Positions 1 through 39,732 of a stretch of 41,794 bases of DNA are shown one piece after another. The notes below the pieces were generated by a model, which saw nothing but the letters and a program-made list of their open reading frames with translations, searched no databases and had not been told where the DNA came from. A program made the translations under genes and the position numbers. How positions within the stretch are numbered: position 1 is the first letter of the stretch; each line of letters opens with the position of its first letter. Origin of the DNA: Gammaproteobacteria bacterium (GTDB lineage: Bacteria > Pseudomonadota > Gammaproteobacteria > Methylococcales > UBA2780); NCBI GenBank assembly GCA_003646305.1, contig QNFJ01000001.1:1-41794 (forward strand), given 5' to 3'.

Positions 1-1325
1 GCTTTGATTTTTTGGGCTTTCTCCTCAGGAACTGCCATGGTGCAGTTCTTCATGAATTTATCTGAGATTTCCTGCAGGGAAAGTGGGCTATCGGCACAAC
101 CCCGGTTTTTGTATTCACGCTGTTGGAGCGTGCGGCCATCTTTAAGTGTTATGCGAATCTCACCTGAATAATAGGTGGGGAAGCCAGAATCAGGATCAAC
201 TTCATAGCCGACCTTTTTTGCCAGGTCGGCAACGATGGGATCAGAAAGCGGCTCTGGTTCCAGGTCATCAAGACTAAAGTCATGGCGAACTAATGCCACG
301 GCCACCAAATAGGGGACGCTGAACTGGGCTTCATAAGCACAAGTGGGTGCCTGTTTGTTTTCAAGAGGTTCGCAGACGGTTTTAACGACCTCTTCAGGGA
401 CTAGCGCGGTGATACTTTCTATTTGCTCCGCAGTGAGCGCATATTGTTCTGTTAGTTTACGTGTGGCATCAATGACTGCGTGGGTAAAATGGCAGGAGGG
501 ATAGGGTTTGACGCCGACATTGATCACTTCCCACACCTCATTTAGTCCAGCGGTTGCGAGGCTATAATCACATTGTGGCTCAAGACCGATCAAGTGGCTT
601 TTGTAGAGGCCAAAGCGGCCATCATAAGGTTTCCTTGGGCCAATATAACCCGCCTTGGCAAAGGTAGCAGCCATAATGCCTGAAACAGCGGCCCATCCTG
701 GGTGATACCTTTTTGTCCAGGCGCCATCCTCGAGGAATTCAAAGTTTCCAGATGCCATGCTGAGCACGATGCCCTGAGCCATAATCATCTGCTCTTCAGT
801 CAATTTCATGAGTCGGGCGGCAACCAGGCTACAGGCAAAAGCACCGGCAATACCTGTCGGGTGATGCCCCACCTGATGAAAAGCACCTTTTGCAACCATG
901 CCTAAGCGAGCACCTACCTCCATTCCGACAATATAGGCGGCCAGCATCTCTTTGCCTGTTGCGTTGGTTTTTTCACCAACGGCCAGTACGCAAGGCCAGA
1001 TGGCTGATGTCATATGAACAACTCCGGCAACATGAGTGTCATCAAAATCGAGACCATGTATAAGCAAGCCATTGGCAAGAGCGGCATCGCGAAAGTTCAT
1101 GCGCTCTCCGGTCCCGAGAACAAAGTGCTCTCCAGGTTCGTTAAATAGGCGTAGCGCTTCCAGCCCCTTTTTACTAAAGTCATATTGGCTTGAGGCGTAA
1201 GCGATGCCGGTTCCGTCTAGAATCAGACTAAGAGCGTATTTTTGGACGGCGTCCGGCACGCTATTTAGATCTAATTTGGCGCTAAATTGGGCAAGTATTT
1301 TTGAGATGTTTTGTTCGGGGTTCAT
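1..1325 (-). CDS. MmgE/PrpD family protein (2-methylcitrate dehydratase superfamily); C-terminal end runs off the window
   Basis: Absent from the ORF track because no stop lies inside the window. The reverse complement from the ATG at 1325 reads MNPEQNISKILAQFSAKLDLNSVPDAVQKYALSLILDGTGIAYASS...NGLLIHGLDFDDTHVAGVVH...HQVGHHPTGIAGAFA...VKPYPSCHFTHA... and stays open to position 1. This is the typical MmgE/PrpD layout. Confidence 0.85.
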   Translation of the reverse strand, partial: MNPEQNISKILAQFSAKLDLNSVPDAVQKYALSLILDGTGIAYASSQYDFSKKGLEALRLFNEPGEHFVLGTGERMNFRDAALANGLLIHGLDFDDTHVAGVVHMTSAIWPCVLAVGEKTNATGKEMLAAYIVGMEVGARLGMVAKGAFHQVGHHPTGIAGAFACSLVAARLMKLTEEQMIMAQGIVLSMASGNFEFLEDGAWTKRYHPGWAAVSGIMAATFAKAGYIGPRKPYDGRFGLYKSHLIGLEPQCDYSLATAGLNEVWEVINVGVKPYPSCHFTHAVIDATRKLTEQYALTAEQIESITALVPEEVVKTVCEPLENKQAPTCAYEAQFSVPYLVAVALVRHDFSLDDLEPEPLSDPIVADLAKKVGYEVDPDSGFPTYYSGEIRITLKDGRTLQQREYKNRGCADSPLSLQEISDKFMKNCTMAVPEEKAQKIK

Positions 1326-1389: not shown

Positions 1390-1418
1390 TTGCCTAACCT
1401 AACAAATGTTAGTAATTT
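1390..1418 (+). promoter_or_regulatory. Candidate sigma70 promoter TTGCCT-N17-TAATTT with palindrome CTAACAaaTGTTAG (1399-1412) in the spacer
   Basis: The hexamers and the 17-nt spacing were read directly, about 70 nt upstream of the GTG at 1486. The 6+2+6 palindrome fills the spacer. The -10 match is weak. Confidence 0.3.
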
Positions 1419-1485: not shown

Positions 1486-2640
1486 GTGGATTTTTCTTTA
1501 ACCGAAGAGCAGTTGGCCATTCAGGAAAGCGCCAGACGTTTTGCTGAAGACAAGTTACTTCCCGAGTATCAGAATAATGACAAGAAGCATTGTTTTGATA
1601 AGGTGATGCTGAAAGAGATGGGTGAGCTGGGCTTGATCGGCAGCGAGCTTTCGGAGCGGTATGGTGGTTTAGGTCTAGGTTATGTGACAGCGGGTTTGAT
1701 CACCGAAGAGATTGCCCGAGCCGACTTTAATGTGGCCTATGTGCAGATCCTCGCTGGCCTGAACGGGGGGATTATTGAAAAGTTTGCGGCGCCTCATTTA
1801 GCGGAGGAGTGGATTCCAAAAATCATTAGCGGTGAGGCGCTTGTTGCGATCGCTTTGACGGAACCGAGTGCGGGATCTGATGCGGGAAATCTAAAACTGA
1901 AAGCCAAAAGGAAGGGGGATGTGTTCGTTCTTGATGGTGAGAAAACCTCGATTTCAGCTGCTGCTCAAGCGGATGTGGCGGTTGTTTTTGCTCGAACGGG
2001 TACACAGGAAGAAAAAGCGAGAGGGGTGAGTGCCTTTCTGGTGCCTTTAGATCATCCCAACATTACGCGTACTCATTTTGATGACCTTGGTGAGTCGATT
2101 GTTGGGCGCGGCTCAATCTTTTTCGATGGTGTCGAAGTACCGGCCGAGAATATGCTTGGAGAAGAGGGACTCGGTTTTATTCAGGTGATGCAGGGTTTTG
2201 ATTATAGCCGTGCCTTAATTGGTATTGAGTGTTTGGCGGCAGCGAAGAAATCGGTTGAAGAGGCCTGGGAACAGATTCGCCAACGTGAAGCATTTGGTAA
2301 AAAGATCTCAAAGTTTGAAGGTGCTAGCTTTCCTTTGGCCGAAGCGGAGACTTTTATCGAGGCGGCAAAACTGCTGTGTTACAAAACACTCTGGTTAAGA
2401 GATCAAGGTAAACCTCATACTGCCGAAGCGGCAATGTGCAAATGGTGGGCACCAAAAATTTCATTCGAGATTATTCATAATTGTTTGTTAGCGCATGGCC
2501 ACGGTGGCTACAGTAAAGAGTATCCGATCCAGCAGCGGCTACGTGATGTGCTTGGCTTGCAGATTGGTGATGGCACTTCACAAATCCAGAAGATTGTCAT
2601 TGCCAGAGAGAAAATTGGCCGTGATGGCGTTCCCTATTAA
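1486..2640 (+). CDS. acyl-CoA dehydrogenase family protein
   Basis: 384 aa with a GTG start downstream of TAGGAG. ACAD hallmarks are present (ALTEPSAGSDAG; C-terminal LGLQIGDGTSQIQKIVIAR). Asp sits where MCAD-type enzymes have the catalytic Glu (I-Y-E-G-T versus I-G-D-G-T). Confidence 0.9.
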   Translation: MDFSLTEEQLAIQESARRFAEDKLLPEYQNNDKKHCFDKVMLKEMGELGLIGSELSERYGGLGLGYVTAGLITEEIARADFNVAYVQILAGLNGGIIEKFAAPHLAEEWIPKIISGEALVAIALTEPSAGSDAGNLKLKAKRKGDVFVLDGEKTSISAAAQADVAVVFARTGTQEEKARGVSAFLVPLDHPNITRTHFDDLGESIVGRGSIFFDGVEVPAENMLGEEGLGFIQVMQGFDYSRALIGIECLAAAKKSVEEAWEQIRQREAFGKKISKFEGASFPLAEAETFIEAAKLLCYKTLWLRDQGKPHTAEAAMCKWWAPKISFEIIHNCLLAHGHGGYSKEYPIQQRLRDVLGLQIGDGTSQIQKIVIAREKIGRDGVPY

Positions 2641-2655
2641 AGAAGGTATCAGAGC

Positions 2656-3447
2656 ATGAGCGATAAAATTGTTATCTCATCGATAGAGGGAAATGTCGGT
2701 CTGATTATCATCAATCGAGCCGACAAATTTAATTGTCTTTCAATGGCCGTGCATCAGGCTTTGCAAGATGCACTACAGGCGCATGAAAGTAATTCGGAAG
2801 TGAGAGCGGTTTTACTTTGTTCGGAAGGTGATCACTTTTGTACCGGAGCAGATCTTGATGAGGTGCATGGCAAGATAGCGGCTAAAGACGATGCTGTGCT
2901 TAGAGAATTTATCGAACTGGGACATAAAACCTGTCGTGATTTTGAACAGACTAGTTTGCCAGTTGTTGGCGCTATTCAGGGGTTCTGTTTAGCGGGTGGG
3001 TTAGAGATATCACTCGGCTGTGATCTGTTGTTTGCTGCGGATGATGCGCTATTCGGTGATCAGCATGCCAACTATGGGTTGATACCTGGGTGGGGAGGAA
3101 GTCAAAGGCTTACTCGAATTATCGGTTTTCGTCGTGCGCTTGATCTGATGTTGTCAGGTCGCCGATTAAAAGCAAAAGAGGCTCAGGAATGGGGAATGGT
3201 TAATTATCTAGCACCTGCTGAATCGCTTAGGGAAGAGGCGCTTAAATATTGTCATCTGCTGGCATCAAAAAGTTCCGGCGGGCTTTCAATGATGAAAGCG
3301 CTCGCCTATCAAGGAAGTGATTTGAGCCTTGATGACGCTTTGCGACTGGAGGTCAACGAGGCGATTAAGGGGCTGCAAAGTGAAGATGTGGGAGAAGGGC
3401 TTGCTGCATTTGGAGAGCGCCGGGAACCTGTCTTCAGATCCCGATAA
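2656..3447 (+). CDS. crotonase-fold protein (enoyl-CoA hydratase/isomerase family) with atypical active site
   Basis: 263 aa. Crotonase motifs are present (FCTGADLDE, GFCLAGGLEISLGCD, GLIPGWGGSQRL). The first catalytic Glu is present (GGLEIS). The second aligns with His (FGDQHANYG versus FGQPEILLG of rat ECH). Confidence 0.85.
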   Translation: MSDKIVISSIEGNVGLIIINRADKFNCLSMAVHQALQDALQAHESNSEVRAVLLCSEGDHFCTGADLDEVHGKIAAKDDAVLREFIELGHKTCRDFEQTSLPVVGAIQGFCLAGGLEISLGCDLLFAADDALFGDQHANYGLIPGWGGSQRLTRIIGFRRALDLMLSGRRLKAKEAQEWGMVNYLAPAESLREEALKYCHLLASKSSGGLSMMKALAYQGSDLSLDDALRLEVNEAIKGLQSEDVGEGLAAFGERREPVFRSR

Positions 3448-3493
3448 ACAGATTTAAATAACGAATTAATATTTAGCCGAGAAGGGAAAAATA

Positions 3494-4276
3494 ATGAACT
3501 ACGAAGATATTACCTATGAAGTAAAAAATGGAGCAGCTTACGTCACCATTAACCGTCCAAAAGTATTTAATGCTTTTAGAGGGATTACCTGTGAAGAGCT
3601 AATTCATGCGCTGACTAAAGCCGCATGGGACAAAAGTGTTGGTGTGATTGTTCTGGCGGGAGCGGGTGATAAAGCATTCTGTACAGGTGGAGATCAAAGT
3701 GCACATGACGGTCAATATGACGGGCGAGGGATTGTTGGCCTGCCTGTTGAAGAGCTGCAAACAATTCTTCGTGATGCGCCTAAACCAGTTATTGCGATGG
3801 TACAAGGTTATGCCATTGGTGGGGGCAATGTGCTGGCGACGATCTGTGATATGACGATCGCCTCAGAAAGAGCCGTTTTTGGCCAGGTGGGCCCTAAAGT
3901 TGGCTCTGTTGATCCGGGTCATGGAACCGCTTATCTTGCCCGCGTGGTTGGGGAGAAAAAAGCACGTGAAATCTGGTACATGTGCCGTAAATATTCTGCA
4001 CAGGAAGCGCTTGAGATGGGGTTGGTTAACAAGGTTGTTCCACATGAAGAGCTTGCTGATGAAGTACAGAAGTGGTGTGATGAAATCATGGATAAAAGCC
4101 CAACAGCACTAGCGATTGCCAAGCGCTCTTTTAATGCCGATACAGAAAGTATCAGAGGAATTTCCGCGTTGGGTATGCAGACATTGCAGCTTTATTACAA
4201 TACAGAAGAGTCTCAGGAAGGGGTTAAGGCGTTTAATGAAAAGCGTAAACCTGATTTCCGCCAGCATGTTAAATAA
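3494..4276 (+). CDS. MenB/BadI-family crotonase, best read as a BadI-like 2-ketocyclohexanecarboxyl-CoA-type (beta-ketoacyl-CoA) hydrolase
   Basis: 260 aa. It carries FCTGGDQSAHDGQYDGRG (the short BadI-like version of the MenB GGDQ loop), GYAIGGGNVLATICD, GPKVGSVDPGHGTAYLARVVG and the C-terminal KAFNEKRKPDF. There are no menaquinone genes nearby, and it follows an ACAD and a crotonase. Confidence 0.72.
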   Translation: MNYEDITYEVKNGAAYVTINRPKVFNAFRGITCEELIHALTKAAWDKSVGVIVLAGAGDKAFCTGGDQSAHDGQYDGRGIVGLPVEELQTILRDAPKPVIAMVQGYAIGGGNVLATICDMTIASERAVFGQVGPKVGSVDPGHGTAYLARVVGEKKAREIWYMCRKYSAQEALEMGLVNKVVPHEELADEVQKWCDEIMDKSPTALAIAKRSFNADTESIRGISALGMQTLQLYYNTEESQEGVKAFNEKRKPDFRQHVK

Positions 4277-4296: not shown

Positions 4297-4884
4297 ATGC
4301 CAGAATCAGGAATTTACGCCATCGATGGGGTTGTCCCAGTTATTCATCCGTCCGCCTTTGTTGACGAAAATGCCACGATTATTGGTGATGTCATTATCGG
4401 ACCAGACTGCTATATCGGTCCTAATGCTTGTCTGAGGGGTGATATGGCCACCATTGAAGTCGGAGCGGGTTCTAATATTCAGGATAACTGCACACTGCAT
4501 TGTATGCCCGGTTTGCCGACAATTATTGGAGAGTGGGGGCACCTTGGTCATGGTGCGGTGGTTCATAGTGCTCGGCTAGCAAAGAATGTCCTGGTTGGTA
4601 TGAATGCTGTTGTGATGGATCAGTCTTTTATCGGTGAGAATAGCGTTGTTGCTGCAATGGCGTTTGTAAAAGTCGGAATGCAAGTGCCAGAAAATACGCT
4701 GGTTGCAGGAACACCTGCACGTATCATTCGGCAGTTGACGGAACAGGAAATTGAAGGAAAACGAGACGGGACACGCTGTTATCACCAGTTAGTGAGCCGT
4801 TGTAAAGACTCTTTAAAGCGGGTCACGCCGCGGACTGAAAAAGAGGTGGGTCGCCCAGAGTTAAAAGTTAAACCGTTAGGATGA
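4297..4884 (+). CDS. gamma-carbonic-anhydrase-like hexapeptide-repeat protein (PaaY/CaiE/YrdA family)
   Basis: 195 aa. Left-handed beta-helix hexapeptide repeats are visible (IIGDVIIGPDCYIGPNACL...). The His triad spacing is retained (H68 in TLH, H85 and H90 in LGHGAVVH). Confidence 0.8.
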   Translation: MPESGIYAIDGVVPVIHPSAFVDENATIIGDVIIGPDCYIGPNACLRGDMATIEVGAGSNIQDNCTLHCMPGLPTIIGEWGHLGHGAVVHSARLAKNVLVGMNAVVMDQSFIGENSVVAAMAFVKVGMQVPENTLVAGTPARIIRQLTEQEIEGKRDGTRCYHQLVSRCKDSLKRVTPRTEKEVGRPELKVKPLG

Positions 4885-4942: not shown

Positions 4943-6139
4943 ATGGATTTAAATTACACTCCAGAAGAAAAAGCATTTCAATTAGAAGTGCGTAGCTTCT
5001 TAAAGGAAAGCTACCCGAAAGAGCTCCAGGATAAAGTTTCAAAAGGGATTGCGCTCAAAAAAGAGGATTATGTCCGTTGGCAGAAAATTCTTGCTAAGCA
5101 GGGTTGGGTTGCACCTGGCTGGCCGGAAAAATTTGGTGGCCCCGGCTGGAGTCCTGTTCAGAAATATATCTTTGATGAGGAGTGTGGTACTGCGAACTGC
5201 TTGAGGACGGTTGCTTTTGGTCTGGTGATGTTGGCGCCTGTCTTAATGGAATTTGGAACAGACGAGCAGCGTGAAAAGTATTTATCAGACATCTATAACA
5301 GTGATGTTTGGTGGTGCCAGGGTTATTCGGAACCCAACTCAGGTTCAGATTTGGCCTCTTTGCAGACGCGGGCAGAAAAGCAGGGTGACCACTATATCGT
5401 CAATGGCTCTAAAACATGGACAACCCATGGTCATTACGCCGATAAGATGTTTGCACTGGTTCGAACCAGCAAAGAAGATCGGAAACAAAAAGGGATCAGC
5501 TTCCTAATGCTCGATATGAAGGCGCCCGGTGTTACAGTCGACCCGATTATTACGGTTGACGGAATGCATGTGGTCAATCAGGTCTTTCTTGATAATGTAA
5601 AAGTACCGGTTGAAAACCTGGTCGGGGTAGAAGGGGAAGGCTGGACGATTGCAAAGTATTTGTTACAGCACGAACGAACTTATATTGCCCAGGTGCCACG
5701 TTCTAAAAAGCAGATTGAGCGCTTGAAGGTATTGGCAGGAAAAGAGCTGCACAATGGTAAATCGTTATTGGAAGATGATCGCTTTCGCGCAAAAATTGCT
5801 GAAATTGAGATTGAGTTATTGGCATTAGAAATGACCAGTTTGCGGATTCTATCCAAAATGTCAGCAGGGCAGCCTCCAGGGTCTGCCTCATCGCTACTTA
5901 AAGTCAAAGGAACAGAAGTACAGCAGGCGATTACGGCTCTACTAATGGAAGCGACAGGTTACTACGGTTTTCCTTACTTCAAAGAGGTCCTTAAAGAGGG
6001 CTGGAATGAAGAGGCAGTAGGGCCTGAAGAGGCAACCTTCCTCGCCCCACATTACTTCGACTGGCGTAAATCTTCTATTTACGGTGGCTCGAATGAAATT
6101 CAGAAAAATATTATGGCGAAAGCTGTATTGGGACTTTAA
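4943..6139 (+). CDS. acyl-CoA dehydrogenase family protein (putative catalytic subunit of a heteromeric pair)
   Basis: 398 aa with YSEPNSGSDLAS and the C-terminal SSIYGGSNEIQKNIMAKAVLGL. The MCAD-type Glu position is Gly, but an IVD/LCAD-type helix-G Glu is present (LLQHERT). Confidence 0.9.
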   Translation: MDLNYTPEEKAFQLEVRSFLKESYPKELQDKVSKGIALKKEDYVRWQKILAKQGWVAPGWPEKFGGPGWSPVQKYIFDEECGTANCLRTVAFGLVMLAPVLMEFGTDEQREKYLSDIYNSDVWWCQGYSEPNSGSDLASLQTRAEKQGDHYIVNGSKTWTTHGHYADKMFALVRTSKEDRKQKGISFLMLDMKAPGVTVDPIITVDGMHVVNQVFLDNVKVPVENLVGVEGEGWTIAKYLLQHERTYIAQVPRSKKQIERLKVLAGKELHNGKSLLEDDRFRAKIAEIEIELLALEMTSLRILSKMSAGQPPGSASSLLKVKGTEVQQAITALLMEATGYYGFPYFKEVLKEGWNEEAVGPEEATFLAPHYFDWRKSSIYGGSNEIQKNIMAKAVLGL

Positions 6140-6151
6140 GGGAGAACGGGA

Positions 6152-7282
6152 ATGAATCTTGAATTCACAGAAGAACAGGTTATGTTGCAGGATGCATTAA
6201 ACAAATACCTTGAAAAAGAATACAGCTTTGAGCAGCGGCAGAAGTTGAGCCGCAATGGCGTCGGTTATAGTGAAGAGAACTGGCAAAATTTTGCCGATAT
6301 GGGATTGTTGGGTGTTCCTTTTGATGAGCAATATGGCGGTTTTGGGTTTGGTGCAACAGGCCTGATCGTCGTCATGGAAGCGATTGGTAAAGGGCTGGTT
6401 GTTGAACCTTACCTTGCCTCTGTTGTTCTCGGTGGTCAGCTTATTCAACAAGCCGGTAGTGAGGTGCAAAAAGAGGCGTTGATTCCGCAATTGATTGCAG
6501 GTGAGTTGAAACTGGCTTTTGCTTATGTCGAGAGAAATTCTCGTTTTAACCTTGCGGATGTGGCCTTTAAAGCAGAAAAAGAGGGAGATGGTTTCCGTTT
6601 AAGCGGCAAAAAATCGGTGGTTTTCAATGCAGAGACAGCCGATAAAATTATCGTTTCAGCTCGAACAGCAGGAGATCAGACCAGTAAAGAAGGGATTTCT
6701 CTTTTTATTGTTGATAAAGGGGCAGTCGGTCTCTCTAGCAGAGACTATGAAACGGTTGATGGTTTGCGCGCATCTGAACTCGATTTTGATGGCGTGATTG
6801 TAGGGGCTGATGCATTAATTGGCTCATTAAATGAGGCCTATCCTGTTATTGAAAGTGTGATTGATTTTGCATCAGCCGCTATTTGTGCGGAGAGCGTTGG
6901 GGTGATCACGCAGCTTCGTGAGAAAACAGTTGAGTACCTGAAAACCAGAAAGCAGTTTGGTCAGCCTATTGGTGCTTTTCAGGTCCTACAGCACCGCACG
7001 GTTGATATGTTTATGGTAGAAGAGCAGATGCGTTCTTTAGCCTATTTAGCCGCAATTCGTGTGACTGATGGAACAGCGGAAGAGCGCCTCAAGAGTGTTT
7101 CTGCAGCCAAGGTCTATCTGGGTGATGCGCGCCCAATCGTCGGTGAACAATCTGCACAGTTACATGGTGGTATTGGGGTTACGGATGAACTGGATGTGGC
7201 CCATTACGTTAAGCGTTTAACGATGCTGAATGTGCTCTTTGGTGATCGCGATCACCATATGCAGCGCTTTTGCCAAAGCTGA
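6152..7282 (+). CDS. acyl-CoA dehydrogenase-like protein lacking a recognisable catalytic base (putative non-catalytic partner subunit)
   Basis: 376 aa, starting 12 nt after the preceding ACAD. The ACAD fold is recognisable throughout. The helix-G position reads VIDFASAAI (no Glu) and the C-terminal position reads LFGDRDHH (no Glu). Confidence 0.85.
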   Translation: MNLEFTEEQVMLQDALNKYLEKEYSFEQRQKLSRNGVGYSEENWQNFADMGLLGVPFDEQYGGFGFGATGLIVVMEAIGKGLVVEPYLASVVLGGQLIQQAGSEVQKEALIPQLIAGELKLAFAYVERNSRFNLADVAFKAEKEGDGFRLSGKKSVVFNAETADKIIVSARTAGDQTSKEGISLFIVDKGAVGLSSRDYETVDGLRASELDFDGVIVGADALIGSLNEAYPVIESVIDFASAAICAESVGVITQLREKTVEYLKTRKQFGQPIGAFQVLQHRTVDMFMVEEQMRSLAYLAAIRVTDGTAEERLKSVSAAKVYLGDARPIVGEQSAQLHGGIGVTDELDVAHYVKRLTMLNVLFGDRDHHMQRFCQS

Positions 7283-7294
7283 TCGGCTAAGCAG

Positions 7295-8317
7295 ATGTCT
7301 AAAACGGAAAAATTAAGTTATCCGTTTGCGGAAAAGCCATCATTTGGTGGTTTGCTCGAAGTTTCGGAAGGACTGTTCTGGCTGCGGGTACCTATTCCGT
7401 TTGCGCTTGACCACATCAATCTCTGGTTATTGCGTGATGGTGATGGTTGGACAATCATTGATACGGGCTTTTTTAGCGCAGAAGTCGCGACAATCTGGGA
7501 ACGGCTGCTAGAAGAATTTTGTGCAGGCGCACCGATTAAAAAAATTGTGGTGACGCACTTTCATCCCGACCACGTTGGTATGGCGAGCTGGTTGGTTGAG
7601 CGAACCGGAGCAGAGCTGTGGATGAGCGAGCGTGAATTCCTGACCGTTCATCGTGTATGTCAGCCCTATTCTGAACGTGAGATTACGGTGAGGGCTATCT
7701 TCTTCGAGCGTTTTGGGCTAAATGAAAAGCAGCTTGCCAGTGTCGTTAACGCGAGAAGTAGTGATGTTGAGGGGCTTCCGGAAGCCCCGGTCTCATACCG
7801 CCGATTGGTCGGTGGACAAACGTTATCGATAAATGGTGAGAACTGGAACTTGTTCAGTTTCGCAGGCCATAGTCCTGAGCATATTTGTCTGCACAATGCG
7901 GAGCGTAATTTGCTGATCTCGGGGGACCAGGTGTTGCCATCAATCTCTCCGAATATTAGTGTCACCTTTTACGAGCCACAGGCAAATCCGTTAGCGGAGT
8001 ATCTGAACAGTTTATCGAGGCTATCCGAGCTGAATGAAGAGACACTGGTGCTACCGTCACATGGTTCTGTATTCCAGGGTCTTCATCGGAGGATTGATCA
8101 GCTTGAGGCCGGACATCAAAAGCAGCTGGACAGGCTTTTGGAGTTTTGTAGGCAACCGCGTGATGGTAAAGAGGCGCTGGAAGCGATGTTTGGTAACCGC
8201 TTAAGTGCATTCAATTTGAGTCTGGGGGTTGGTGAGGCCCAGGCACACCTGAATTATTTAGTGGCCAAGCGTGAGCTAAAACAAAATGATGAGTTTATTC
8301 CACATTACCAGCGATAG
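7295..8317 (+). CDS. MBL-fold metallo-hydrolase
   Basis: 340 aa with the HxHxDH motif in VVTHFHPDHVG and downstream GHSPEH and PSHG. Confidence 0.85.
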   Translation: MSKTEKLSYPFAEKPSFGGLLEVSEGLFWLRVPIPFALDHINLWLLRDGDGWTIIDTGFFSAEVATIWERLLEEFCAGAPIKKIVVTHFHPDHVGMASWLVERTGAELWMSEREFLTVHRVCQPYSEREITVRAIFFERFGLNEKQLASVVNARSSDVEGLPEAPVSYRRLVGGQTLSINGENWNLFSFAGHSPEHICLHNAERNLLISGDQVLPSISPNISVTFYEPQANPLAEYLNSLSRLSELNEETLVLPSHGSVFQGLHRRIDQLEAGHQKQLDRLLEFCRQPRDGKEALEAMFGNRLSAFNLSLGVGEAQAHLNYLVAKRELKQNDEFIPHYQR

Positions 8318-8383: not shown

Positions 8384-8806
8384 ATGAACGATACAGTGAC
8401 ATACAAAAGCCTGATTCTAGGTGATGATTTTCTTGATCCACCGCCCTCTTTTGAGGTGACCAATGAGGTGGTTGATAAATATATTCGTGCAACAAACGAT
8501 GCAACCCAGGAGCTTGGAGAGCCTAATAGTAGAGGCCAGCGAATTGCACCTCCTATGCTGGCTGCGGTTTATGTGATTGACGCGCTGCGTACCAAGGTCG
8601 GGCCGCCGGGTGGCGTTCATGCCAAGCAGCAATTTAAATTTCATCGCCCCGCATGCGTGGGTGAAACACTTTATACCTCGGCAAAGATTGTCAAACTCTA
8701 TCAGAAAAAAGAGCGGAATTACGTTGAGATGACGACTGAAACGCTTAACCAGGATGACGACTTAGTGACGACAGGGCTGATCACTCGGATATGGGGGAAA
8801 GAATAA
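8384..8806 (+). CDS. hotdog-fold protein, MaoC N-terminal-half type (no hydratase-2 catalytic motif)
   Basis: 140 aa. Its size and pattern fit a hotdog fold. It has no [ST]GDxNPxH motif. Its stop TAA (8804-8806) overlaps the next ATG (TAATG). Confidence 0.72.
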   Translation: MNDTVTYKSLILGDDFLDPPPSFEVTNEVVDKYIRATNDATQELGEPNSRGQRIAPPMLAAVYVIDALRTKVGPPGGVHAKQQFKFHRPACVGETLYTSAKIVKLYQKKERNYVEMTTETLNQDDDLVTTGLITRIWGKE

Positions 8807-9248: not shown

Positions 9249-10652
9249 ATGAGTTACCGTAAAGATGGGGCTTTAGAGAAAAAAGGCGACAGCTATTACC
9301 ACCAGATTGAGTGTGCTTCAGAAGATGAAATCATCAAGATTCAGGAAGAGAAATTACAGGCGCAGATGGCCTATTTGTCTAAAAACTCAAAGCTCTATCA
9401 ACAGAAGTTTGAGAAGGCAGGTATTCGTTTTGATGAGATCAAAACACTAAAGGATTTAGCCAAAGTCCCTTTTACCGTTAAACAGGATCTTAGGGACAGT
9501 CTTCAAGCTGCTCCACCATTTGGTCTTCACCAAACAGCACCGCTTTCTGAGATTGTACAGATGCAGGCCTCGTCAGGAACCACCGGTAGTCCCGCTTATG
9601 TCGCTCTGACTGAAAACGATATTGAGATGTGGAATGAACTGAGTGCGCGAGGATTTTATGCCTGCGGTGTTAACCCAGGCGACTTTGTTTTACATGGCTT
9701 TTCCATGAGTAAAGGCTTTGTTGGCGGTATCCCTTGTATGCAGGCGATTCAATATATGGGGGCAATTGATGTTCCTGTGGGCGCTGATGGTGGGGTTGAT
9801 CGGCTGTTACGTGCCTGTGCGGATATTAAACCGCGAGTTATTATTGGCGCGCCTAATTTTCTACTGCATATTGCCTCGATGGCGCCCGATATTCTTGGTA
9901 AACGTGCCGATGAACTGGGCGTAGAAAGATTAGTTGTTGGTGGTGAACCAGGTGGTGGTATTCCTGCGATTCGCGAATCACTGGAAGAGAAATGGGGCGC
10001 GAAAGTCTGTGAAATGATGGGAGGGACTGATCTCGGCGTCATCTATTGGGCAGAATGTGATGAGCAAGATGGCATGCATATGATCTGTCAGGATCACATT
10101 ATTGTCGAATTGATTGACCCGGAAACAGAGCAGGTGATTCCTTTTGAGAAAGGCGTTACTGGCGAGCTGATTTATACCGCGATTGGCCGCGAGGCTTCAC
10201 CCGTTGTTCGTTTTAAAAGTGGCGATCACATTGTGGTGACCGATACGGCGTGTAGTTGTGGCCGGACAGGCCCTAAAATACGCTGCTTTGGGCGAACAGA
10301 TGATATGTTGATTGTCCGCGGCATCAATGTCTTTCCATCGGCAATCCAGGATCTTATTTTACAGCTACAACCTGACACCAACGGCGTGATGCGTGTCTGG
10401 GCCGATTTTGAAGGCCATACCACGCAAGCAAATCTGAAAGTATTGGTTGAGCGCGGCATTGATCGGTCGAAAGAGCAGGATCAGGAGCTTATCAGCCATG
10501 TGGAGCAAACCATTCGCAACGCCTTATCGTTCAAGGCGAAAGTGATTGTTGTCGATGCAAATAGTTTTGAAAAACCGGGTGTTGCAAAAGTAGCGCTAAC
10601 GCTTCGTGAGCAACCCGGCTTTCTCACTCTTGATGATGAGGGTGCTCAGTAA
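9249..10652 (+). CDS. PaaK-like adenylate-forming enzyme (phenylacetate-CoA ligase / coenzyme F390 synthetase family)
   Basis: 467 aa with the P-loop-like QASSGTTGSPAYV. The overall pattern is PaaK-family rather than FadD-type. Confidence 0.8.
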   Translation: MSYRKDGALEKKGDSYYHQIECASEDEIIKIQEEKLQAQMAYLSKNSKLYQQKFEKAGIRFDEIKTLKDLAKVPFTVKQDLRDSLQAAPPFGLHQTAPLSEIVQMQASSGTTGSPAYVALTENDIEMWNELSARGFYACGVNPGDFVLHGFSMSKGFVGGIPCMQAIQYMGAIDVPVGADGGVDRLLRACADIKPRVIIGAPNFLLHIASMAPDILGKRADELGVERLVVGGEPGGGIPAIRESLEEKWGAKVCEMMGGTDLGVIYWAECDEQDGMHMICQDHIIVELIDPETEQVIPFEKGVTGELIYTAIGREASPVVRFKSGDHIVVTDTACSCGRTGPKIRCFGRTDDMLIVRGINVFPSAIQDLILQLQPDTNGVMRVWADFEGHTTQANLKVLVERGIDRSKEQDQELISHVEQTIRNALSFKAKVIVVDANSFEKPGVAKVALTLREQPGFLTLDDEGAQ

Positions 10653-12262
10653 TGTCAATTATAAAGTCGACTGTACATAATCAGTCTGAAGAGTTTATCG
10701 CTAATCGAAATCGTTATCTTGAACGGATCGAAGAACTACAGGAACACCGGCAGCGCGCCCATTTAGGTGGGCCAGAGAAAGCACGGAAACGTCATATAGA
10801 ACACCGCGAACAGATATTGCCGCGTGATCGTATTCGGTTGCTGATTGACCCGGGTTCTCCTTTTTTTGAACTGGGTGAACTTGCGGGTGATGGTCTGCCC
10901 GAAGGGACTCAGGTCGGTGCAAGTGTTATTACCGGCGTCGGCCTCATTAACAGCCGTCAATGTATGATTATTGCCAATGATGCCACCGTAAAAGGCGGTA
11001 CTTATTTTCCAATGACCTGTAAAAAACATGTTCGGGCGCAGACGTTTGCGATACAGCATCGGCTACCCTGCATCACTTTAGTTCAAAGTGGTGGTGCATT
11101 TTTGCCAGAGCAGGAAGGTATTTTTCCTGATGAGGGTATGTTCGGAAGCATCTTTGTTAACCAGATCGAAATGTCCGCTCAGGGTATTCCACAGATTTCC
11201 GTGGTAATGGGCTCATCAACAGCAGGTGGTGCCTATATACCTGCGTTGTGTGATGAGATTGTCATCATTAAAGGGAAAGGTTTTATGTATCTGGGTGGCC
11301 CCCAACTGGTTGAAGCGGCGACAGGTGAGAAGGTCGAACATGAAGCGCTAGGCGGTGCAGAAATGCATTGTCGGGATAGTGGTGTTACCGATCATCTAGC
11401 AGAAGATGACGCACATGGTTTGAGTATGGTACGCGATATTGTGCGAAATCTGGGTAACCTACCCGAACAACGCTGGGATGTGGCTAAATCGGTTCCACCA
11501 CTATATCCGGTGGAAGAGATTTACGGCATTGTTAATCAGGATACGAAAATTCCGACCGCTAACCGACAAATCTTGGCTCGCTTAATTGATGGTAGTGACT
11601 TTGATGAATTCAAGGCCAATTATGGCGATACGCTGATGTGTGGCTTTGCCAAAATACATGGTTTTGAAATCGGTATTTTAGCTAATGATGGCGTGATGTT
11701 TAGTGAGTCTGCTAAAAAAGGGGCGCACTTTATTAATCTTTGCTGCCAGCGCGATATTCCACTGTTATTTGTGGCCGATGTTCCCGGTTTTATGGTGGGT
11801 GAACATGCCGAGCGGGGTGGTATCGCAAAAGATGGAGCAAAGTTCATCACCGCCATGTGTTCTGCAAAAGTACCTAAATATACCTTAATCACGGGAGGCT
11901 CTTACGGTGCCGGTTATTTAGCCATGTGTGGTCGCCCGTTTAAACCGAATGCCATGTTAGCCTGGCCATCGGGTCGTGCTGGCATTATGGGGCCGGAGCA
12001 GGTTGCCAATACGCTTGCAACGGTACGCGAAGATATCCTCAAACGAGAAGGAAAAAGTTGGACGGAAGAAGAGCGGGAAGAATTTAAAGCGCCACATCGG
12101 AAACGATTTGAGGATTCTGAAGGTGCTTATAACTTTGCCTCCAAGTTGTGGTATGACGCGGTGATTGATCCAACAGAAACACGCGAAGTGCTGGCACTTT
12201 TACTTGATCTGGCAGGACGTTCGCCCAAAGTGGAAACTAAATTTGGTGTATTCAGACAATGA
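10652..12262 (+). CDS. acyl-CoA carboxylase carboxyltransferase (beta) subunit, methylcrotonyl-/geranyl-CoA carboxylase type
   Basis: 536 aa. The layout is typical of MccB/AtuC (RIEELQEHRQRAHLGGPEKARKRH..., ANDATVKGGTYFPMT, GSSTAGGAYIPA, GSYGAGYLAMCG). Its start overlaps the previous stop (TAATG). Confidence 0.9.
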   Translation: MSIIKSTVHNQSEEFIANRNRYLERIEELQEHRQRAHLGGPEKARKRHIEHREQILPRDRIRLLIDPGSPFFELGELAGDGLPEGTQVGASVITGVGLINSRQCMIIANDATVKGGTYFPMTCKKHVRAQTFAIQHRLPCITLVQSGGAFLPEQEGIFPDEGMFGSIFVNQIEMSAQGIPQISVVMGSSTAGGAYIPALCDEIVIIKGKGFMYLGGPQLVEAATGEKVEHEALGGAEMHCRDSGVTDHLAEDDAHGLSMVRDIVRNLGNLPEQRWDVAKSVPPLYPVEEIYGIVNQDTKIPTANRQILARLIDGSDFDEFKANYGDTLMCGFAKIHGFEIGILANDGVMFSESAKKGAHFINLCCQRDIPLLFVADVPGFMVGEHAERGGIAKDGAKFITAMCSAKVPKYTLITGGSYGAGYLAMCGRPFKPNAMLAWPSGRAGIMGPEQVANTLATVREDILKREGKSWTEEEREEFKAPHRKRFEDSEGAYNFASKLWYDAVIDPTETREVLALLLDLAGRSPKVETKFGVFRQ

Positions 12263-14247
12263 TTAAACGAATTCTTATCGCAAACCGCGGCGAAATCGCC
12301 TGTCGAATTACACGAACCTGCCGTAAATTGGGGATTGATGCCGTTGGTGTCTATTCAACGGCAGATAGCCAGGGCCGCCATGTTAGAGAGATTGGTCATT
12401 CTGTTGCTATCGGTGGTGCCAGTGCAGCAGATAGTTACCTCAATATAGATAAAGTCATTGCAGCAGCTAAAGCGACTAACTGTGATGCCATTCATCCAGG
12501 TTATGGTTTTTTATCAGAAAACCCCGACTTTGCCGAGGCGGTTGAAGGTGCTGGGCTTATTTTTATTGGTCCCAGAGCGGATAGCTTACGCCGTTTTGGT
12601 GATAAGTCTGCCGCTAAAAAAGAGGCTATTAATGCCGATGTGCCGGTTATCCCGGGCAGTGATGGAAAGCTTTCCGATCCAGTGGAGATTGCCAAGATTG
12701 TTAAAAGCATGGAGCTTCCAGTGATGCTGAAAGCCGCCGCGGGTGGTGGTGGGAAGGGGATGCGGATTATCAGTGATCTGCCAAGTCTGGAATCCGATAT
12801 CAGCAGTGCCATGAGCGAAGCATTGCGTTCTTTTTCCGATGAGGCGCTACTGATTGAAAAATGTATCTACAATGCGCGTCATGTAGAGGTGCAGATTGCA
12901 GGTGATGGTGAAGGCAATGTCGTTCACCTTTTTGAACGAGAATGCTCTTTACAGCGTCGCCACCAAAAAGTTGTTGAAGAGGCGCCTGCTATTTTCCTCC
13001 GGCTAGAGCAGCGTGAAAAATTGTTGGAAGCTGCTTGCCGACTTGGTAAGCAGATTAATTTTAGAGGACTGGGCACTGTTGAGTTTCTTGTGCTGGGTGA
13101 CGATTACTATTTTCTGGAAGTAAACCCGCGGCTTCAGGTGGAGCACCCCGTTACTGAGAGCATAACTGGTCTGGATCTGGTCGAACTACAGATTCGCATT
13201 GCACAGGGAAGCGGTTTTGGCTTTCGCCAAGAAGAGGTCAGTGCTTCAGGTCACGCCATTGAGGTGCGCCTTTATGCCGAATCACCAGAGCAGAACTTTA
13301 TGCCAGCGACGGGAACAATTGAGCTTGTGAAATTCCCAGACGAGCACCTGCGCGTTGAATCCGGGGTCGATAGCGGTGACGAGATAAGTGCCTATTACGA
13401 CCCAATGGTTGCCAAACTGATTGCTACTGGAGAGAATCGAAATCAGGCGCTGGAACGTCTTCAAAAAGGAGTTGATGAAACCATTCTTTTTGGGGTTGAT
13501 AATAACCGTAATTTTCTTCAGCAACTGCTTCGCCATAACGAGGTTGTCGAGGACAAGATTGACACCGGCACGCTGGATCGCTGGTTAGCCGATTATGCCG
13601 ATGGAAAGGGTTCTCTTGAAGCAGAAAAACAGGCAGCTATTGCGGCTATTCTATGGCTAAACCAGCACCGAAAGAGTGGCTCATTAAATCCATGGGAAGG
13701 CGCCGATATCTTTAGTTATTGGGCATTAAGATCACCGAATGACAAACCTATTTATACCTTTAGCCTGATCGAAAATGAAGATGAGTGGAAGATCGCTTTT
13801 CTGAATATCGATGAGCAAGGGCTTGTTGCGCTGATGGTAAATGACCAGCGGATTGAATTGCGGCTGAAAGCTCAGGGCGATGACAGCTGGATGGCTGAAT
13901 TTCCGGAGGCACATATCCCTGTGACGGCTATTGCCACAACTGAACAGCTCTATATCCACGCACTTTCACAACAAAGTAGCTACCGAGTGGAGCAGGTTGT
14001 CCGCGATAAACAAGGGGAAGCGGCCGGTGCGAATAGTGTCATGGCACCGATGATGGGTGAGATTATCAAGGTGATTATTAAGGAAGGGGATAGCGTAGAA
14101 GAGGGTGATCTTCTGATTGTAATGGAGTCAATGAAAATGCAATTACAAATTGAAGCCGTTAAAGCGGGTACGGTAACTAACGTTCTTTGCAAGGCAGGCG
14201 ACAATGTTGCACGCGGTGAAGTTGTGGTAGAAGTCGATGCAGAATAA
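12259..14247 (+). CDS. acyl-CoA carboxylase biotin carboxylase + BCCP (alpha) subunit
   Basis: 662 aa. It has an ATP-grasp biotin carboxylase domain (ILIANRGEIACRI, KAAAGGGGKGMR, EVNPRLQVEHPVTE). The C-terminal biotinyl domain has the motif VMESMKMQ, with the Lys codon at 14134-14136. The start overlaps the beta subunit stop (ATGA). Confidence 0.92.
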   Translation: MIKRILIANRGEIACRITRTCRKLGIDAVGVYSTADSQGRHVREIGHSVAIGGASAADSYLNIDKVIAAAKATNCDAIHPGYGFLSENPDFAEAVEGAGLIFIGPRADSLRRFGDKSAAKKEAINADVPVIPGSDGKLSDPVEIAKIVKSMELPVMLKAAAGGGGKGMRIISDLPSLESDISSAMSEALRSFSDEALLIEKCIYNARHVEVQIAGDGEGNVVHLFERECSLQRRHQKVVEEAPAIFLRLEQREKLLEAACRLGKQINFRGLGTVEFLVLGDDYYFLEVNPRLQVEHPVTESITGLDLVELQIRIAQGSGFGFRQEEVSASGHAIEVRLYAESPEQNFMPATGTIELVKFPDEHLRVESGVDSGDEISAYYDPMVAKLIATGENRNQALERLQKGVDETILFGVDNNRNFLQQLLRHNEVVEDKIDTGTLDRWLADYADGKGSLEAEKQAAIAAILWLNQHRKSGSLNPWEGADIFSYWALRSPNDKPIYTFSLIENEDEWKIAFLNIDEQGLVALMVNDQRIELRLKAQGDDSWMAEFPEAHIPVTAIATTEQLYIHALSQQSSYRVEQVVRDKQGEAAGANSVMAPMMGEIIKVIIKEGDSVEEGDLLIVMESMKMQLQIEAVKAGTVTNVLCKAGDNVARGEVVVEVDAE

Positions 14248-15418
14248 ACGCTCAATTCGAGGCAAAGTTGCGATTGTTGGTGTTGGGCAATCACCTTCAG
14301 GACGGGTGCCCGGCAGAAGCCCGTTAGACTTGACTGCCGATGCAACGCTTAAAGCACTGGCCGACGCCGGTATGGATAAAAGTGAAATTGACGGGGTCTT
14401 GACGGGTAATGCCTTCGCCTCATCCTTCCACCGTTTTAGTGTTGCATTGAGTGAATACCTGAACATTCAACCTTCATTCTCTAATACCTTGCAGGTCTCG
14501 GGAGCCACTGCGGGAGCCGCCGTTAATATTGCCGCAGCAGCGATTAACGGTGGGCTTGCAGATACGGTGCTGGTCGCCTGTGGTGATAGCCTGTTAACTG
14601 GGATGACACCAGATATGGCGATTAGAGCGATGACCGAAAGCCGTGATCAACAATATGAAATGCCTTTTGGAATTCCTGTGGCCAATACGTTTGCGATGAC
14701 GGCTCAGCGGCATATGAAAGAGTACGGCACCACCTCTGAACAGTTAGCACAAGTGGCCGTTACCTTTCGTGAGCATGCTCGACGTACACCGGGTGCGCAA
14801 AAGACGGACTCGATTACGGTTGAGGATGTGTTAAATTCCAAAATGGTGACGACGCCGTATCACAAACTGGACTGTTCTCTTATTTCTGATGGTGCTGTTG
14901 CGCTAATTTTGACCTCGGCGGAAAAGGCGCATGAATATACTCAGGAGCCAATTTATATTCTGGGTGGTGGCGAGTATTACAGCCATGAGCATATTTTTTT
15001 GATGCCAGAATTGACCCAGACGGGTGCGGTTCAGGCAGCTAAAAAGGCCTATGAGATGGCGGGTGTGACGGCAAAAGATATTGATGTTGCGGGAATTTAT
15101 GATTGTTTTACCGGAACGGTTTTGATGATGCTCGAAGATCTCGGGTTTTGTAAAAAAGGCGAGTCAGGCCCATTCGTTGAGGCGGGAGAAATCACCTACG
15201 GAGGGGCTATTCCGACTAATACTCACGGTGGAATGCTCTCTTATGCGCATCCGGGTATTCCGGCGGCATGGTTTCATTTTGCGGAGGTGGTTAGACAGCT
15301 TCGCAATAGCTGCGGTGAAAGACAGGTTGCCAGTGCAGAGCTTGGACTAGTCCATACCTTAGGTGCTGGTTTTTCAACCCAGGCAACGACGATATTAGGA
15401 ACGGGGAGCACACTGTGA
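14237..15418 (+). CDS. thiolase-fold (SCP-x/Ltp-type) protein apparently lacking the nucleophilic Cys; candidate aldolase subunit
   Basis: 393 aa with an SCP-x-type thiolase pattern (VAIVGVGQS..., NTHGGMLSYAHPG). Gly occupies the nucleophile position (GATAGAAVNIAAAAINGG versus CATGSTALFMARQLIQGG). Confidence 0.85.
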   Translation: MQNKRSIRGKVAIVGVGQSPSGRVPGRSPLDLTADATLKALADAGMDKSEIDGVLTGNAFASSFHRFSVALSEYLNIQPSFSNTLQVSGATAGAAVNIAAAAINGGLADTVLVACGDSLLTGMTPDMAIRAMTESRDQQYEMPFGIPVANTFAMTAQRHMKEYGTTSEQLAQVAVTFREHARRTPGAQKTDSITVEDVLNSKMVTTPYHKLDCSLISDGAVALILTSAEKAHEYTQEPIYILGGGEYYSHEHIFLMPELTQTGAVQAAKKAYEMAGVTAKDIDVAGIYDCFTGTVLMMLEDLGFCKKGESGPFVEAGEITYGGAIPTNTHGGMLSYAHPGIPAAWFHFAEVVRQLRNSCGERQVASAELGLVHTLGAGFSTQATTILGTGSTL

Positions 15419-27649: not shown

Positions 27650-27650
27650 C

Positions 27651-28112: not shown

Positions 28113-28126
28113 TGTTTTCTCCTCAT

Positions 28127-29299: not shown

Positions 29300-29315
29300 T
29301 ATTCATCTCACCTGA

Positions 29316-30482: not shown

Positions 30483-30485
30483 GAT

Positions 30486-32086: not shown

Positions 32087-32092
32087 AATGAG

Positions 32093-32557: not shown

Positions 32558-32582
32558 GTTGAACGGTTGGTTTATAGATGGC

Positions 32583-34928: not shown

Positions 34929-34932
34929 ATTC

Positions 34933-39730: not shown

Positions 39731-39732
39731 TT

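Follow-up and report, generated by a model that had tools for sequence, protein, structure and literature searches.

A predicted ring-opening gene module of a Cycloclasticus-like gammaproteobacterium with a histidine-variant crotonase and no adjacent BadH

How is a ring-opening hydrolase supplied with its substrate when the genes directly beside it encode an acyl-CoA dehydrogenase (ACAD) and a crotonase, and no short-chain dehydrogenase/reductase (SDR)? The question is raised by the first genes of QNFJ01000001.1 (assembly GCA_003646305.1, positions 1-41,794, forward strand; this whole stretch of 41,794 nucleotides is called the window). Alicyclic and naphthenic acids are persistent, toxic constituents of petroleum, and the genes for their degradation are poorly known in marine specialists such as Cycloclasticus. 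A sequence-only reading of the window had placed a 260-aa protein in the MenB/BadI branch of the crotonase superfamily, had noted departures from the usual catalytic residues in the ACAD and the crotonase, and had suggested that the chemistry feeding the hydrolase may differ from the textbook order.

Proteins identical to those of the window were found on metagenome contigs of up to 129 kb, and near-identical DNA was present in sediment, marine and hydrothermal-vent metagenomes. The closest named genome is a Cycloclasticus metagenome-assembled genome that shares the gene order and whose BadI is 97% identical, and the host is a Cycloclasticus-like gammaproteobacterium of hydrocarbon-rich sediments. 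As had been described, the three open reading frames (ORFs) are intact, adjacent and closely spaced (Table 1), with 15 nt between the ACAD and crotonase genes, 46 nt between the crotonase and hydrolase genes, and 20 nt from there to the next gene.

The hydrolase and the acyl-CoA dehydrogenase

The 260-aa protein scored above the cut-off of the BadI model (TIGR03210, Table 1) and below the cut-offs of both MenB models (TIGR01929, 327.5 versus 342.7; PRK07396, 355.8 versus 380). It carries GGDQSAHDGQYDGRG, in which the GGDQ loop is 3-4 residues shorter than in MenB, and the segment GPKVGSVDPG, two of the features that had led to its placement in the MenB/BadI branch. The short loop and GSVDPG are common to the window protein and 13 BadI sequences, whereas three MenB sequences differ and have GSFD(G/A)G. 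Residues S138, D140 and Y235, which we take from published mutagenesis work to be the catalytic positions of BadI, were invariant across 13 homologs including the window protein. Identity was 71-80% to the BadI of many proteobacteria and 72% to that of Rhodopseudomonas sp. NSM, which is encoded in a canonical badH-badI-aliB-aliA-badK cluster. The best 120 database relatives were 75-93% identical, and those with a name are nearly all called 2-ketocyclohexanecarboxyl-CoA hydrolase.

An identity of 54-60% to solved MenB structures, and a database record that names one close relative (P0040) 'DHNA-CoA synthase', would fit a role as MenB (1,4-dihydroxy-2-naphthoyl-CoA synthase) in menaquinone synthesis. 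Apart from the model scores and signatures, this assignment is opposed by a neighbor-joining tree in which the three MenBs formed a clade with 100/100 bootstrap support that did not contain the window protein. The genes around the protein also speak against it: no domain or family typical of menaquinone synthesis was present among the annotated ORFs, as had been noted earlier, the FadD-type ligase of the window falls below the MenE cut-off (TIGR01923, 267.7 versus 330.15), and an AliB gene lies adjacent. A MenB identity, which we find scarcely conceivable, was therefore rejected on model scores, signatures and clade. Since monophyly of 14 BadI sequences reached only 36/100 in the same small tree, the assignment leans on the curated models and signatures and not on the tree. 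The evidence supports a BadI-type ring-opening hydrolase, with a predicted ring-cleavage activity; a literature search for BadI in Cycloclasticus turned up nothing specific. At residue 143, within D-P-G-H-G, the window protein and two others of its type (P0001 and L006) have a histidine; this position is Phe, Tyr or Trp in the remaining aligned BadI sequences and Tyr or Trp in MenB.

The ACAD starts with GTG, preceded by AGGAG 7 nt upstream, and it passes the curated equivalog cut-off of the NCBIfam AliB (cyclohexanecarboxyl-CoA dehydrogenase) model (Table 1). On the Geobacter/Syntrophus-type model NF043006 it remained below the cut-off (184.9 bits versus 650). It was 53-60% identical to the aliB products of bad-ali clusters, including 53% to AliB of Rhodopseudomonas sp. 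NSM, and by these measures it is a member of the AliB family. Its C-terminal end reads GLQIGDGTSQIQK, and the x-G-T motif contains an aspartate (GDGT) at what we take to be the position of the catalytic glutamate in medium-chain (MCAD-type) enzymes, equivalent to Glu376. The aspartate had been regarded as atypical. It is indeed present, but it is not peculiar to this protein, since GDGT was found in 60 of 60 AliB-like proteins of at least 50% identity from the fetched loci, among them the canonical Rhodopseudomonas aliB product. The reading of this ACAD as atypical was therefore rejected, and the aspartate, being the norm of the family, is no argument for altered chemistry. Literature searches on the aspartate of cyclohexanecarboxyl-CoA dehydrogenases turned up nothing specific.

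The histidine-variant crotonase

The crotonase between these two genes, called ECH_H here, reads FGDQHANYG at residues 133-141. In both MAFFT and HMMER alignments, which are unambiguous at this position, His137 was placed opposite the glutamate of the G-x-P-E motif in BadK, EchA8, 5zai, 7eum and other solved crotonases. The first catalytic glutamate, E117 (GGLE), is retained, and D135-Q136-H137 replaces x-P-E, so that the histidine proposed for the second catalytic position was confirmed and the protein does not keep both glutamates. ECH_H is also not an ortholog of BadK by identity: it is 33% identical to the Rhodopseudomonas protein, to which true BadK orthologs elsewhere are 54-59% identical.

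The histidine is not confined to this protein but is a conserved property. Sixteen homologs, with identities down to 51%, all have E117, G134-D-Q-H-A138 (including His137) and P144-G-W-G147, and the subfamily also has W146, C27, H60 and C62. The hosts of these homologs are Bradyrhizobium, Halomonas, Hoeflea, roseobacters and uncultured Gammaproteobacteria. All 16 bear generic names only, and ECH_H is a widespread unnamed crotonase subfamily, which stands in for BadK beside AliB-like ACADs across many taxa. Among the alignments shown by whole-protein and 44-residue motif searches, none was to a solved crotonase with histidine at the second glutamate position, literature searches on a His-type crotonase turned up nothing specific, and no studied or solved member of ECH_H was found in literature and structure searches. 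We infer a hydratase role for this protein.

The missing dehydrogenase and the supply of the hydrolase

When 21 SDRs (BadH, BadH-like and others) were compared with the six frames of the window by tblastn, the best E value was 0.4, and Pfam searches of the larger ORFs found no SDR. On longer contigs from this lineage, gene calling revealed no hydroxyacyl-CoA dehydrogenase from ∼8.5 kb upstream to ∼10 kb downstream of the window; window and flanks together make up ∼60 kb without badH. The only SDR in the flanks is a 283-aa protein encoded ∼5.7 kb upstream of the ACAD, which had its best score as a 2,4-dienoyl-CoA reductase and was 26-34% identical to BadH-type SDRs. Apart from this protein, the claim that no SDR lies beside the ACAD and the crotonase held.

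To place this absence in context, we surveyed 80 GTDB loci retrieved through BadI and 80 metagenome loci retrieved through the crotonase, classifying the neighbors by BLAST against a reference set. Among the 69 BadI loci with full flanks, a BadH-like SDR was adjacent in 59, and nine had none within 10 kb; the absence of BadH is thus unusual but not unique. Neither a BadK-type nor a His-type crotonase was present in 61 of the 80 BadI loci, which agrees with a published remark that many bad-ali clusters lack badK and have a copy of the gene elsewhere in the genome (PMC9795900).

An AliB-like ACAD was found directly upstream of ECH_H in nearly every locus with enough sequence, and this nearly constant association occurs in at least five architectures in Alpha-, Beta- and Gammaproteobacteria. 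The window has the Cycloclasticus-type arrangement (type A), with PrpD on the minus strand divergent from AliB, ECH_H, BadI, PaaY, PimC, PimD, a metallo-beta-lactamase-fold protein, two MaoC proteins, a PaaK-like ligase, carboxyltransferase (CT) and biotin carboxylase (BC), and the gene order of this operon is shared by at least six assemblies and metagenomes that are independent of one another. BadI and PaaY are absent from the sister lineages (type A'): L109 has AliB, ECH_H and PimC, and L108, L110 and L111, which have no carboxylase, are classed by an intact, full-length ECH_H next to an AliB remnant of ∼130 aa (L108:9596-9982 and L111:272-673; in L110 no AliB-like ORF was found ahead of the crotonase). 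The AliB/ECH_H/BadI module is evolutionarily labile.

In Roseobacter, Bradyrhizobium and Halomonas (type B), a left part with a BadH ortholog, ACS and NmrA, and a ligase and a FadH-like gene on the minus strand, is followed by AliB-like, ECH_H, ACAD, PaaK-like, CT, BC, 3-hydroxy-3-methylglutaryl-CoA (HMG-CoA) lyase, SDR and citrate-synthase-like genes, with no BadI. This strongly conserved and apparently undescribed cluster (L095:1234-19676, also L090, L092 and L113-L148), with BadH (59-64% identical to BadH) and no BadI, is the mirror image of the window; one locus, L143, has the same genes plus BadH and BadI (type B'). Porticoccaceae and Cellvibrionales (type C) have AliB, ECH_H, BadI and a BadH-like SDR, in this or a permuted order, with neither a carboxylase nor a canonical BadK within 10 kb, so that ECH_H is their only hydratase. 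Loci of various taxa (type D) have a FadH-like gene on the minus strand, then AliB-like, ECH_H, CT, BC and HMG-CoA lyase together with a second carboxylase, and L164 (type E) has BadH, ECH_H and BadI.

On this basis we favor, as modestly probable, a bad/ali-type ring-opening module in which the His-crotonase takes the place of BadK and the 2-hydroxyacyl-CoA dehydrogenase comes from elsewhere. The AliB-type ACAD would oxidize a thioester of the cyclohexanecarboxyl-CoA type to cyclohex-1-ene-1-carboxyl-CoA, and ECH_H, which would stand in for BadK without being its ortholog and has Glu/His in place of Glu/Glu, would add water to give the 2-hydroxy compound. A dehydrogenase encoded outside the ∼60-kb region would then form the 2-oxo compound, and BadI would cleave the ring hydrolytically to a (substituted) pimeloyl-CoA. 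The ring-opened product would be processed by the PimCD-like ACAD, the MaoC pair, the carboxylase and the Ltp2-like aldolase with its DUF35 partner encoded downstream. Type C supports this reading, since it contains exactly the four textbook activities with ECH_H as the sole hydratase, as do the pairing of ECH_H with a true BadH ortholog in type B and the fact that incomplete clusters are common. Because the same ACAD, His-crotonase and BadI occur beside a BadH-like SDR in sister architectures, the textbook order with an SDR encoded elsewhere is the simplest explanation; a BadH-like SDR accompanies BadI in most of the architectures that have this hydrolase. The make-up of the downstream genes suggests alkyl-branched substrates, for example naphthenic or terpenoid acids. 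On a contig of a sponge-symbiont Cycloclasticus (L089:10629-10917), an AtuA (acyclic terpene utilization) gene lies near the BadI-PaaY-PimCD block, which hints at substrates of the terpenoid type.

Several observations weigh against this interpretation. No other gene is linked to BadI as faithfully as BadH (59/69), yet BadH is absent from every Cycloclasticus-type locus, which makes the lack of the SDR a consistent feature of the lineage and not an accident of assembly. No candidate dehydrogenase for the host genome was located in the window, its flanks or the best 120 SDR matches; the latter, obtained with a Porticoccaceae BadH-like SDR as query (67-99% identity, most unnamed), included no protein labeled Cycloclasticus, a weak point in itself. 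In the array at 1486-24066 there is no NAD-dependent hydroxyacyl-CoA dehydrogenase, and its sole thiolase-fold gene lacks the nucleophilic cysteine, a combination that looks like design rather than omission. Finally, ECH_H is also found without BadI, beside methylcrotonyl-CoA carboxylase (MCC)-type carboxylase and HMG-CoA-lyase genes and in the BadI-less sister lineages, which makes its role as an analog of BadK uncertain. In a more distant Cycloclasticus lineage, whose BadI is 83% identical, a further operon lies 4-8 kb upstream of AliB; the lineage of the window does not have it. This operon encodes two SDRs, one of them FabG/HSD10-like, together with a ligase, a thiolase, a CoA-transferase and a crotonase that resembles BadK (47% identity).

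As for the earlier suggestion that the chemistry upstream of the hydrolase differs from the textbook order, the missing second glutamate of the crotonase and the lack of an SDR nearby are in line with it, whereas the aspartate of the ACAD and the BadH-like SDRs of the sister loci are not. Different chemistry is possible.

Another explanation is favored by the type B and type D clusters and by the BadI-less sister lineages. The ACAD and ECH_H may serve the carboxylase, following the logic of the Liu and Atu pathways, with BadI and PaaY as a later insertion, so that the triad would reflect adjacency without consecutive chemistry. The ACAD would produce a 3-substituted 2-enoyl-CoA, the carboxylase would add CO2 at the gamma carbon, the crotonase would hydrate the glutaconyl-type product and a lyase would cleave it, while BadI and PaaY would handle 2-oxocyclohexanecarboxyl-CoA arising elsewhere. 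The CT belongs to the MCC/GCC class (GCC, geranyl-CoA carboxylase), which carboxylates the gamma carbon of 3-substituted 2-enoyl-CoAs, and the AliB, ECH_H, PaaK-like ligase, CT and BC of the window are 58, 56, 64, 66 and 46% identical to those of the BadI-less type B. In addition, ECH_H is the only crotonase before the lyase in type D-like loci (AliB-like, ECH_H, CT, BC, HMG-CoA lyase), and the sister lineages either lack BadI and PaaY (L109) or keep an intact ECH_H next to a truncated AliB (L108, L110, L111). We nevertheless consider this explanation unlikely. The Porticoccaceae-type clusters have AliB, ECH_H, BadI and SDR with no carboxylase within 10 kb, and in the window only 46 nt separate ECH_H from BadI, compared with 6 kb to the carboxylase. 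Furthermore, ECH_H shows no particular resemblance to methylglutaconyl-CoA hydratase: among its structure matches, AUH (1hzd) comes far behind generic hydratases. No HMG-CoA-lyase homolog is present in the window.

The array around the triad and its genomic setting

The ACAD, crotonase and BadI genes begin a same-strand array that extends from 1486 to 24066. BadI is followed by the PaaY-like hexapeptide protein, the PimC- and PimD-like subunits, the metallo-beta-lactamase-fold hydrolase, two MaoC/hot-dog subunits and the PaaK-like ligase, then by CT, BC, an SCPx-type 'thiolase' with its DUF35 partner and an RND pump, and finally by an NMO-like flavoprotein, a canonical crotonase, a MaoC-like protein and a FadD-type ligase. 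The PaaY/CaiE-like protein, likely an acyl-CoA thioesterase, fills the slot that a BadH-like SDR occupies in the Porticoccaceae-type clusters.

Table 1. Features of the window, with the evidence on which each assignment is based.
Feature	Position	Strand	Evidence
MmgE/PrpD-family gene, 3' end cut by window start	1-1325	-	Pfam MmgE_PrpD_N and MmgE_PrpD_C; divergent from ACAD
Perfect 13-nt inverted repeat (AAATTTATTGTGA / TCACAATAAATTT) in PrpD/AliB spacer	1345-1357/1369-1381		
Palindrome CTAACAAATGTTAG, PrpD/AliB divergent intergenic region	1399-1412		conserved in window, L006, L086, L114
AliB-type ACAD, 384 aa	1486-2640	+	TIGR03207, 583 bits versus cut-off 575.35
His-variant crotonase ECH_H, 263 aa	2656-3447	+	Pfam ECH_1; below every NCBIfam cut-off
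BadI-type 2-ketocyclohexanecarboxyl-CoA hydrolase (predicted), 260 aa	3494-4276	+	TIGR03210, 475.7 bits versus cut-off 467.6
PaaY/CaiE-like hexapeptide protein	4297-4884	+	TIGR02287 PaaY, 251.9 bits, below 319.6 cut-off
PimC-like ACAD subunit	4943-6139	+	TIGR03204, 454.6 bits, best match, below cut-off
PimD-like ACAD subunit	6152-7282	+	TIGR03203, 413.3 bits, best match, below cut-off
Metallo-beta-lactamase-fold hydrolase	7295-8317	+	Pfam Lactamase_B
Two hot-dog/MaoC hydratase subunits	8384-8806, 8791/8806-9237	+	Pfam FAS1_DH_region, MaoC_dehydratas; HadA/HadB-like NCBIfam matches
PaaK-like acyl-CoA ligase	9249-10652	+	AMP-binding and AMP-binding_C_2; PaaK models well below cut-off
MCC/GCC-class carboxyltransferase	10652-12262	+	3u9r MCC beta 596 bits, 5ikl GCC beta 425, PCC-type at most 253
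Biotin carboxylase/BCCP	12259-14247	+	Pfam
SCPx/Ltp2-like 'thiolase' without nucleophilic Cys	14237-15418	+	PDB matches including Ltp2 aldolase 6ok1, 179 bits
DUF35/OB-fold partner	15415-15855	+	Pfam zf-ChsH2, OB_ChsH2_C
Canonical crotonase, both catalytic Glu	21108-21869	+	17 kb downstream
FadD-type acyl-CoA synthetase, not MenE, no AliA ortholog	22507-24066	+	PRK06187, 530.8 bits versus cut-off 476

The 'thiolase' of the array has a glycine opposite the nucleophilic cysteine of C-A-S-G in the thiolase 7yvy, and the structures closest to it (4u4e, 9myr and the Ltp2 aldolase 6ok1) likewise lack this cysteine. With these genes, it can be imagined that the missing SDR is a design feature and that rings with an alkyl group at C2 or a similar tertiary center are opened without a dehydrogenase. 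ECH_H would hydrate a 2-substituted cyclohex-1-ene-1-carboxyl-CoA to a tertiary alcohol, which is not oxidizable and mimics the hydrated ketone, and the C1-C2 bond would be cleaved by retro-aldol chemistry, either by BadI or by the Cys-less Ltp2-like/DUF35 aldolase; alternatively, the 2-oxo group would arise as in the Atu pathway, through carboxylation by the MCC/GCC-type enzyme, hydration, and removal of acetate by a lyase. The SDR is absent from all Cycloclasticus-type loci, the operon holds a set of tools suited to tertiary carbons (the MCC/GCC carboxylase, the Cys-less SCPx/Ltp2-like protein with DUF35, and heteromeric ACAD and MaoC proteins), and the window-type BadI differs from the other aligned BadI proteins at His143. 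Tertiary beta carbons block the beta-oxidation of naphthenic acids (PMC10710301), which we also count in favor of this idea. By analogy, the enzyme logic would match that of the steroid side-chain ChsE/ChsH/Ltp2 system. Still, there is no direct evidence for such a route, the BadI of the window retains all signatures of its family at 72-78% identity to canonical BadI and shows no sign of a new reaction in its sequence, and related clusters with the same crotonase do have BadH-like SDRs. We regard dehydrogenase-free opening as distinctly improbable, and return to the supply of the dehydrogenase from elsewhere as the favored reading.

Some features of the setting could be taken to mean that the module is a mobile remnant, incomplete and possibly in decay, which can no longer sustain a complete pathway. 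On a 129-kb contig (L100:1-2825), genes for a TrfA replication initiator, ParA and ParB lie 5-9 kb upstream of the window start, a plasmid-like context seen in this one assembly; sister lineages have AliB cut to ∼130 aa and have lost BadI and PaaY; and the window itself contains a split OYE-type gene. We find a remnant very improbable, since the three genes are full length and the operon is syntenic across the independent assemblies and metagenomes. In comparisons of the three genes with two other Cycloclasticus lineages, nonsynonymous divergence (dN) was 0.02-0.2 and synonymous sites were saturated, so that all that can be stated is that dN lies far below synonymous divergence, which indicates purifying selection; BadI is 97% identical between lineages.

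The OYE-type gene (39724-40579) is split into overlapping ORFs of 184 and 120 aa, with the same split in L097, L098 and L099, and is probably a frameshifted pseudogene. The cluster may lie on a plasmid or an integrated element in the lineage of the window; in other Cycloclasticus assemblies it is on contigs of ∼1 Mb. The upstream flank encodes, besides TrfA, ParA, ParB and the 283-aa SDR, a CoA-transferase fragment, a TetR protein and a pyrroloquinoline quinone (PQQ) alcohol dehydrogenase. Downstream are acetone carboxylase genes, an ACS-like ligase and a CoA-transferase; past the window end, at L097:13449-20835, these comprise the acetone carboxylase subunits (Hydantoinase_B, Acetone_carb_G, Hydantoinase_A) and an acetoacetyl-CoA-synthetase-like ligase.

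The minus strand carries a second catabolic block (25317-35331), which likewise has no hydroxyacyl-CoA dehydrogenase. Besides three ACADs and a MaoC hydratase, it encodes three family III CoA-transferases, along with a flavin reductase, a TfoX-like protein and an SCPx/DUF35 pair. This second SCPx-type 'thiolase' and DUF35 pair lies at 33777-35331, and its thiolase-like gene (33777-35045) has, by eye, V-G-G-S-S at the place of the cysteine. For a 390-aa ORF of the same block (28127-29299, minus strand), the match to the family III CoA-transferase domain is confined to the last third of that domain (profile positions 237-358), and the N-terminal part of the ORF has a weak acetyl-CoA hydrolase/transferase match; the gene, which was also called on L097, gives the impression of a chimera or a truncation. 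Positions 37205-39130 encode a sigma-54 activator that has a MimR_N domain, and the acetone carboxylase genes come after it, past the window end.

The MmgE/PrpD gene keeps its place in all Cycloclasticus-type loci. In the spacer between it and AliB, the palindrome is kept in four such loci although the remaining spacer diverges, and both it and the 13-nt inverted repeat are candidate operator sites. Evidence for co-transcription was sought among RNA runs, none of which holds the window sequence. Promoter-like matches were fewer than expected from shuffled sequence and terminator-like matches about equal to it, so that these scans carry no information.

Comparison with known systems

AliB and BadI are already known, whereas the literature searched contains no description of the cluster architecture or of the Glu/His crotonase subfamily. 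The locus puts a bona fide AliB and BadI, as judged by the family models, in the Cycloclasticus lineage, and it is of value mainly for the unnamed crotonase subfamily and the fixed partnership of this subfamily with AliB-like dehydrogenases. The reaction of ECH_H, for which a ring-enoyl-CoA hydratase, a hydratase of a carboxylated enoyl-CoA and a hydratase-lyase are candidates, would, once known, annotate many homologs in public genomes and metagenomes, and would also reveal whether rings with tertiary carbons open without a dehydrogenase. If the dehydrogenase is merely encoded elsewhere, the result would be an ordinary but useful annotation.

Within the crotonase superfamily, MenB shares with the window BadI the sub-branch, the fold and the G-S-x-D and Tyr catalytic positions, but the window protein has the shorter loop, GSVDPG in place of GSFD(G/A)G, no men context and a position outside the MenB clade. 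The canonical crotonases (rat ECHS1, Mycobacterium tuberculosis EchA8 and BadK) share fold, length, E117 and P-G-x-G-G-x-Q-R-L with ECH_H, and differ in the second catalytic glutamate, which is replaced by the histidine of an invariant D-Q-H.

The Liu and Atu pathways combine an ACAD, an MCC/GCC carboxylase, a glutaconyl-type hydratase and an HMG-CoA-type lyase. The window operon shares the carboxylase class, and in other taxa the AliB-like ACAD and His-crotonase adjoin CT, BC and HMG-CoA lyase, but in the window the ACAD is AliB-like and not IVD-like, the crotonase is not LiuC/AtuE-like, and the lyase is missing. In the steroid side-chain ChsE/ChsH/Ltp2 system, cleavage takes place at a tertiary alcohol and needs no dehydrogenase. 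With the ChsE1-E2, ChsH1-H2 and Ltp2-DUF35 components of that system the window shares an ACAD and a MaoC hydratase of two subunits each, and an SCPx-fold protein that lacks the cysteine and has a DUF35 partner; the similarity is at the family level only, and the window has no steroid genes and adds BadI and the carboxylase.

The Porticoccaceae/Cellvibrionales-type cluster has the same three genes in the same order, with a crotonase that is 48-52% identical and shares G-D-Q-H-A. There, a 265-aa SDR, which is ∼40% identical to BadH and has BadH as its best NCBIfam match (217 bits, below cut-off), directly follows BadI, whereas the window has the PaaY-like gene in that place. Compared with the bad-ali clusters of R. 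palustris and Aromatoleum sp. CIB (aliA, aliB, badK, badH, badI), the window is not a complete cluster: badK is replaced by the His-variant crotonase, badH was not found within the ∼60 kb, no aliA ortholog was detected in the window, which has PaaK-like and FadD-like ligases instead, and no MarR-type badR was noted among its annotated ORFs. The module also lies inside an operon of 22 kb, which includes a carboxylase, an RND pump and an aldolase-like pair. AliB and BadI nevertheless match their bad-ali counterparts at the level of orthologs, the genes likewise lie side by side in one orientation, and they are followed by PimCD-like genes, which would act on the pimeloyl-CoA formed.

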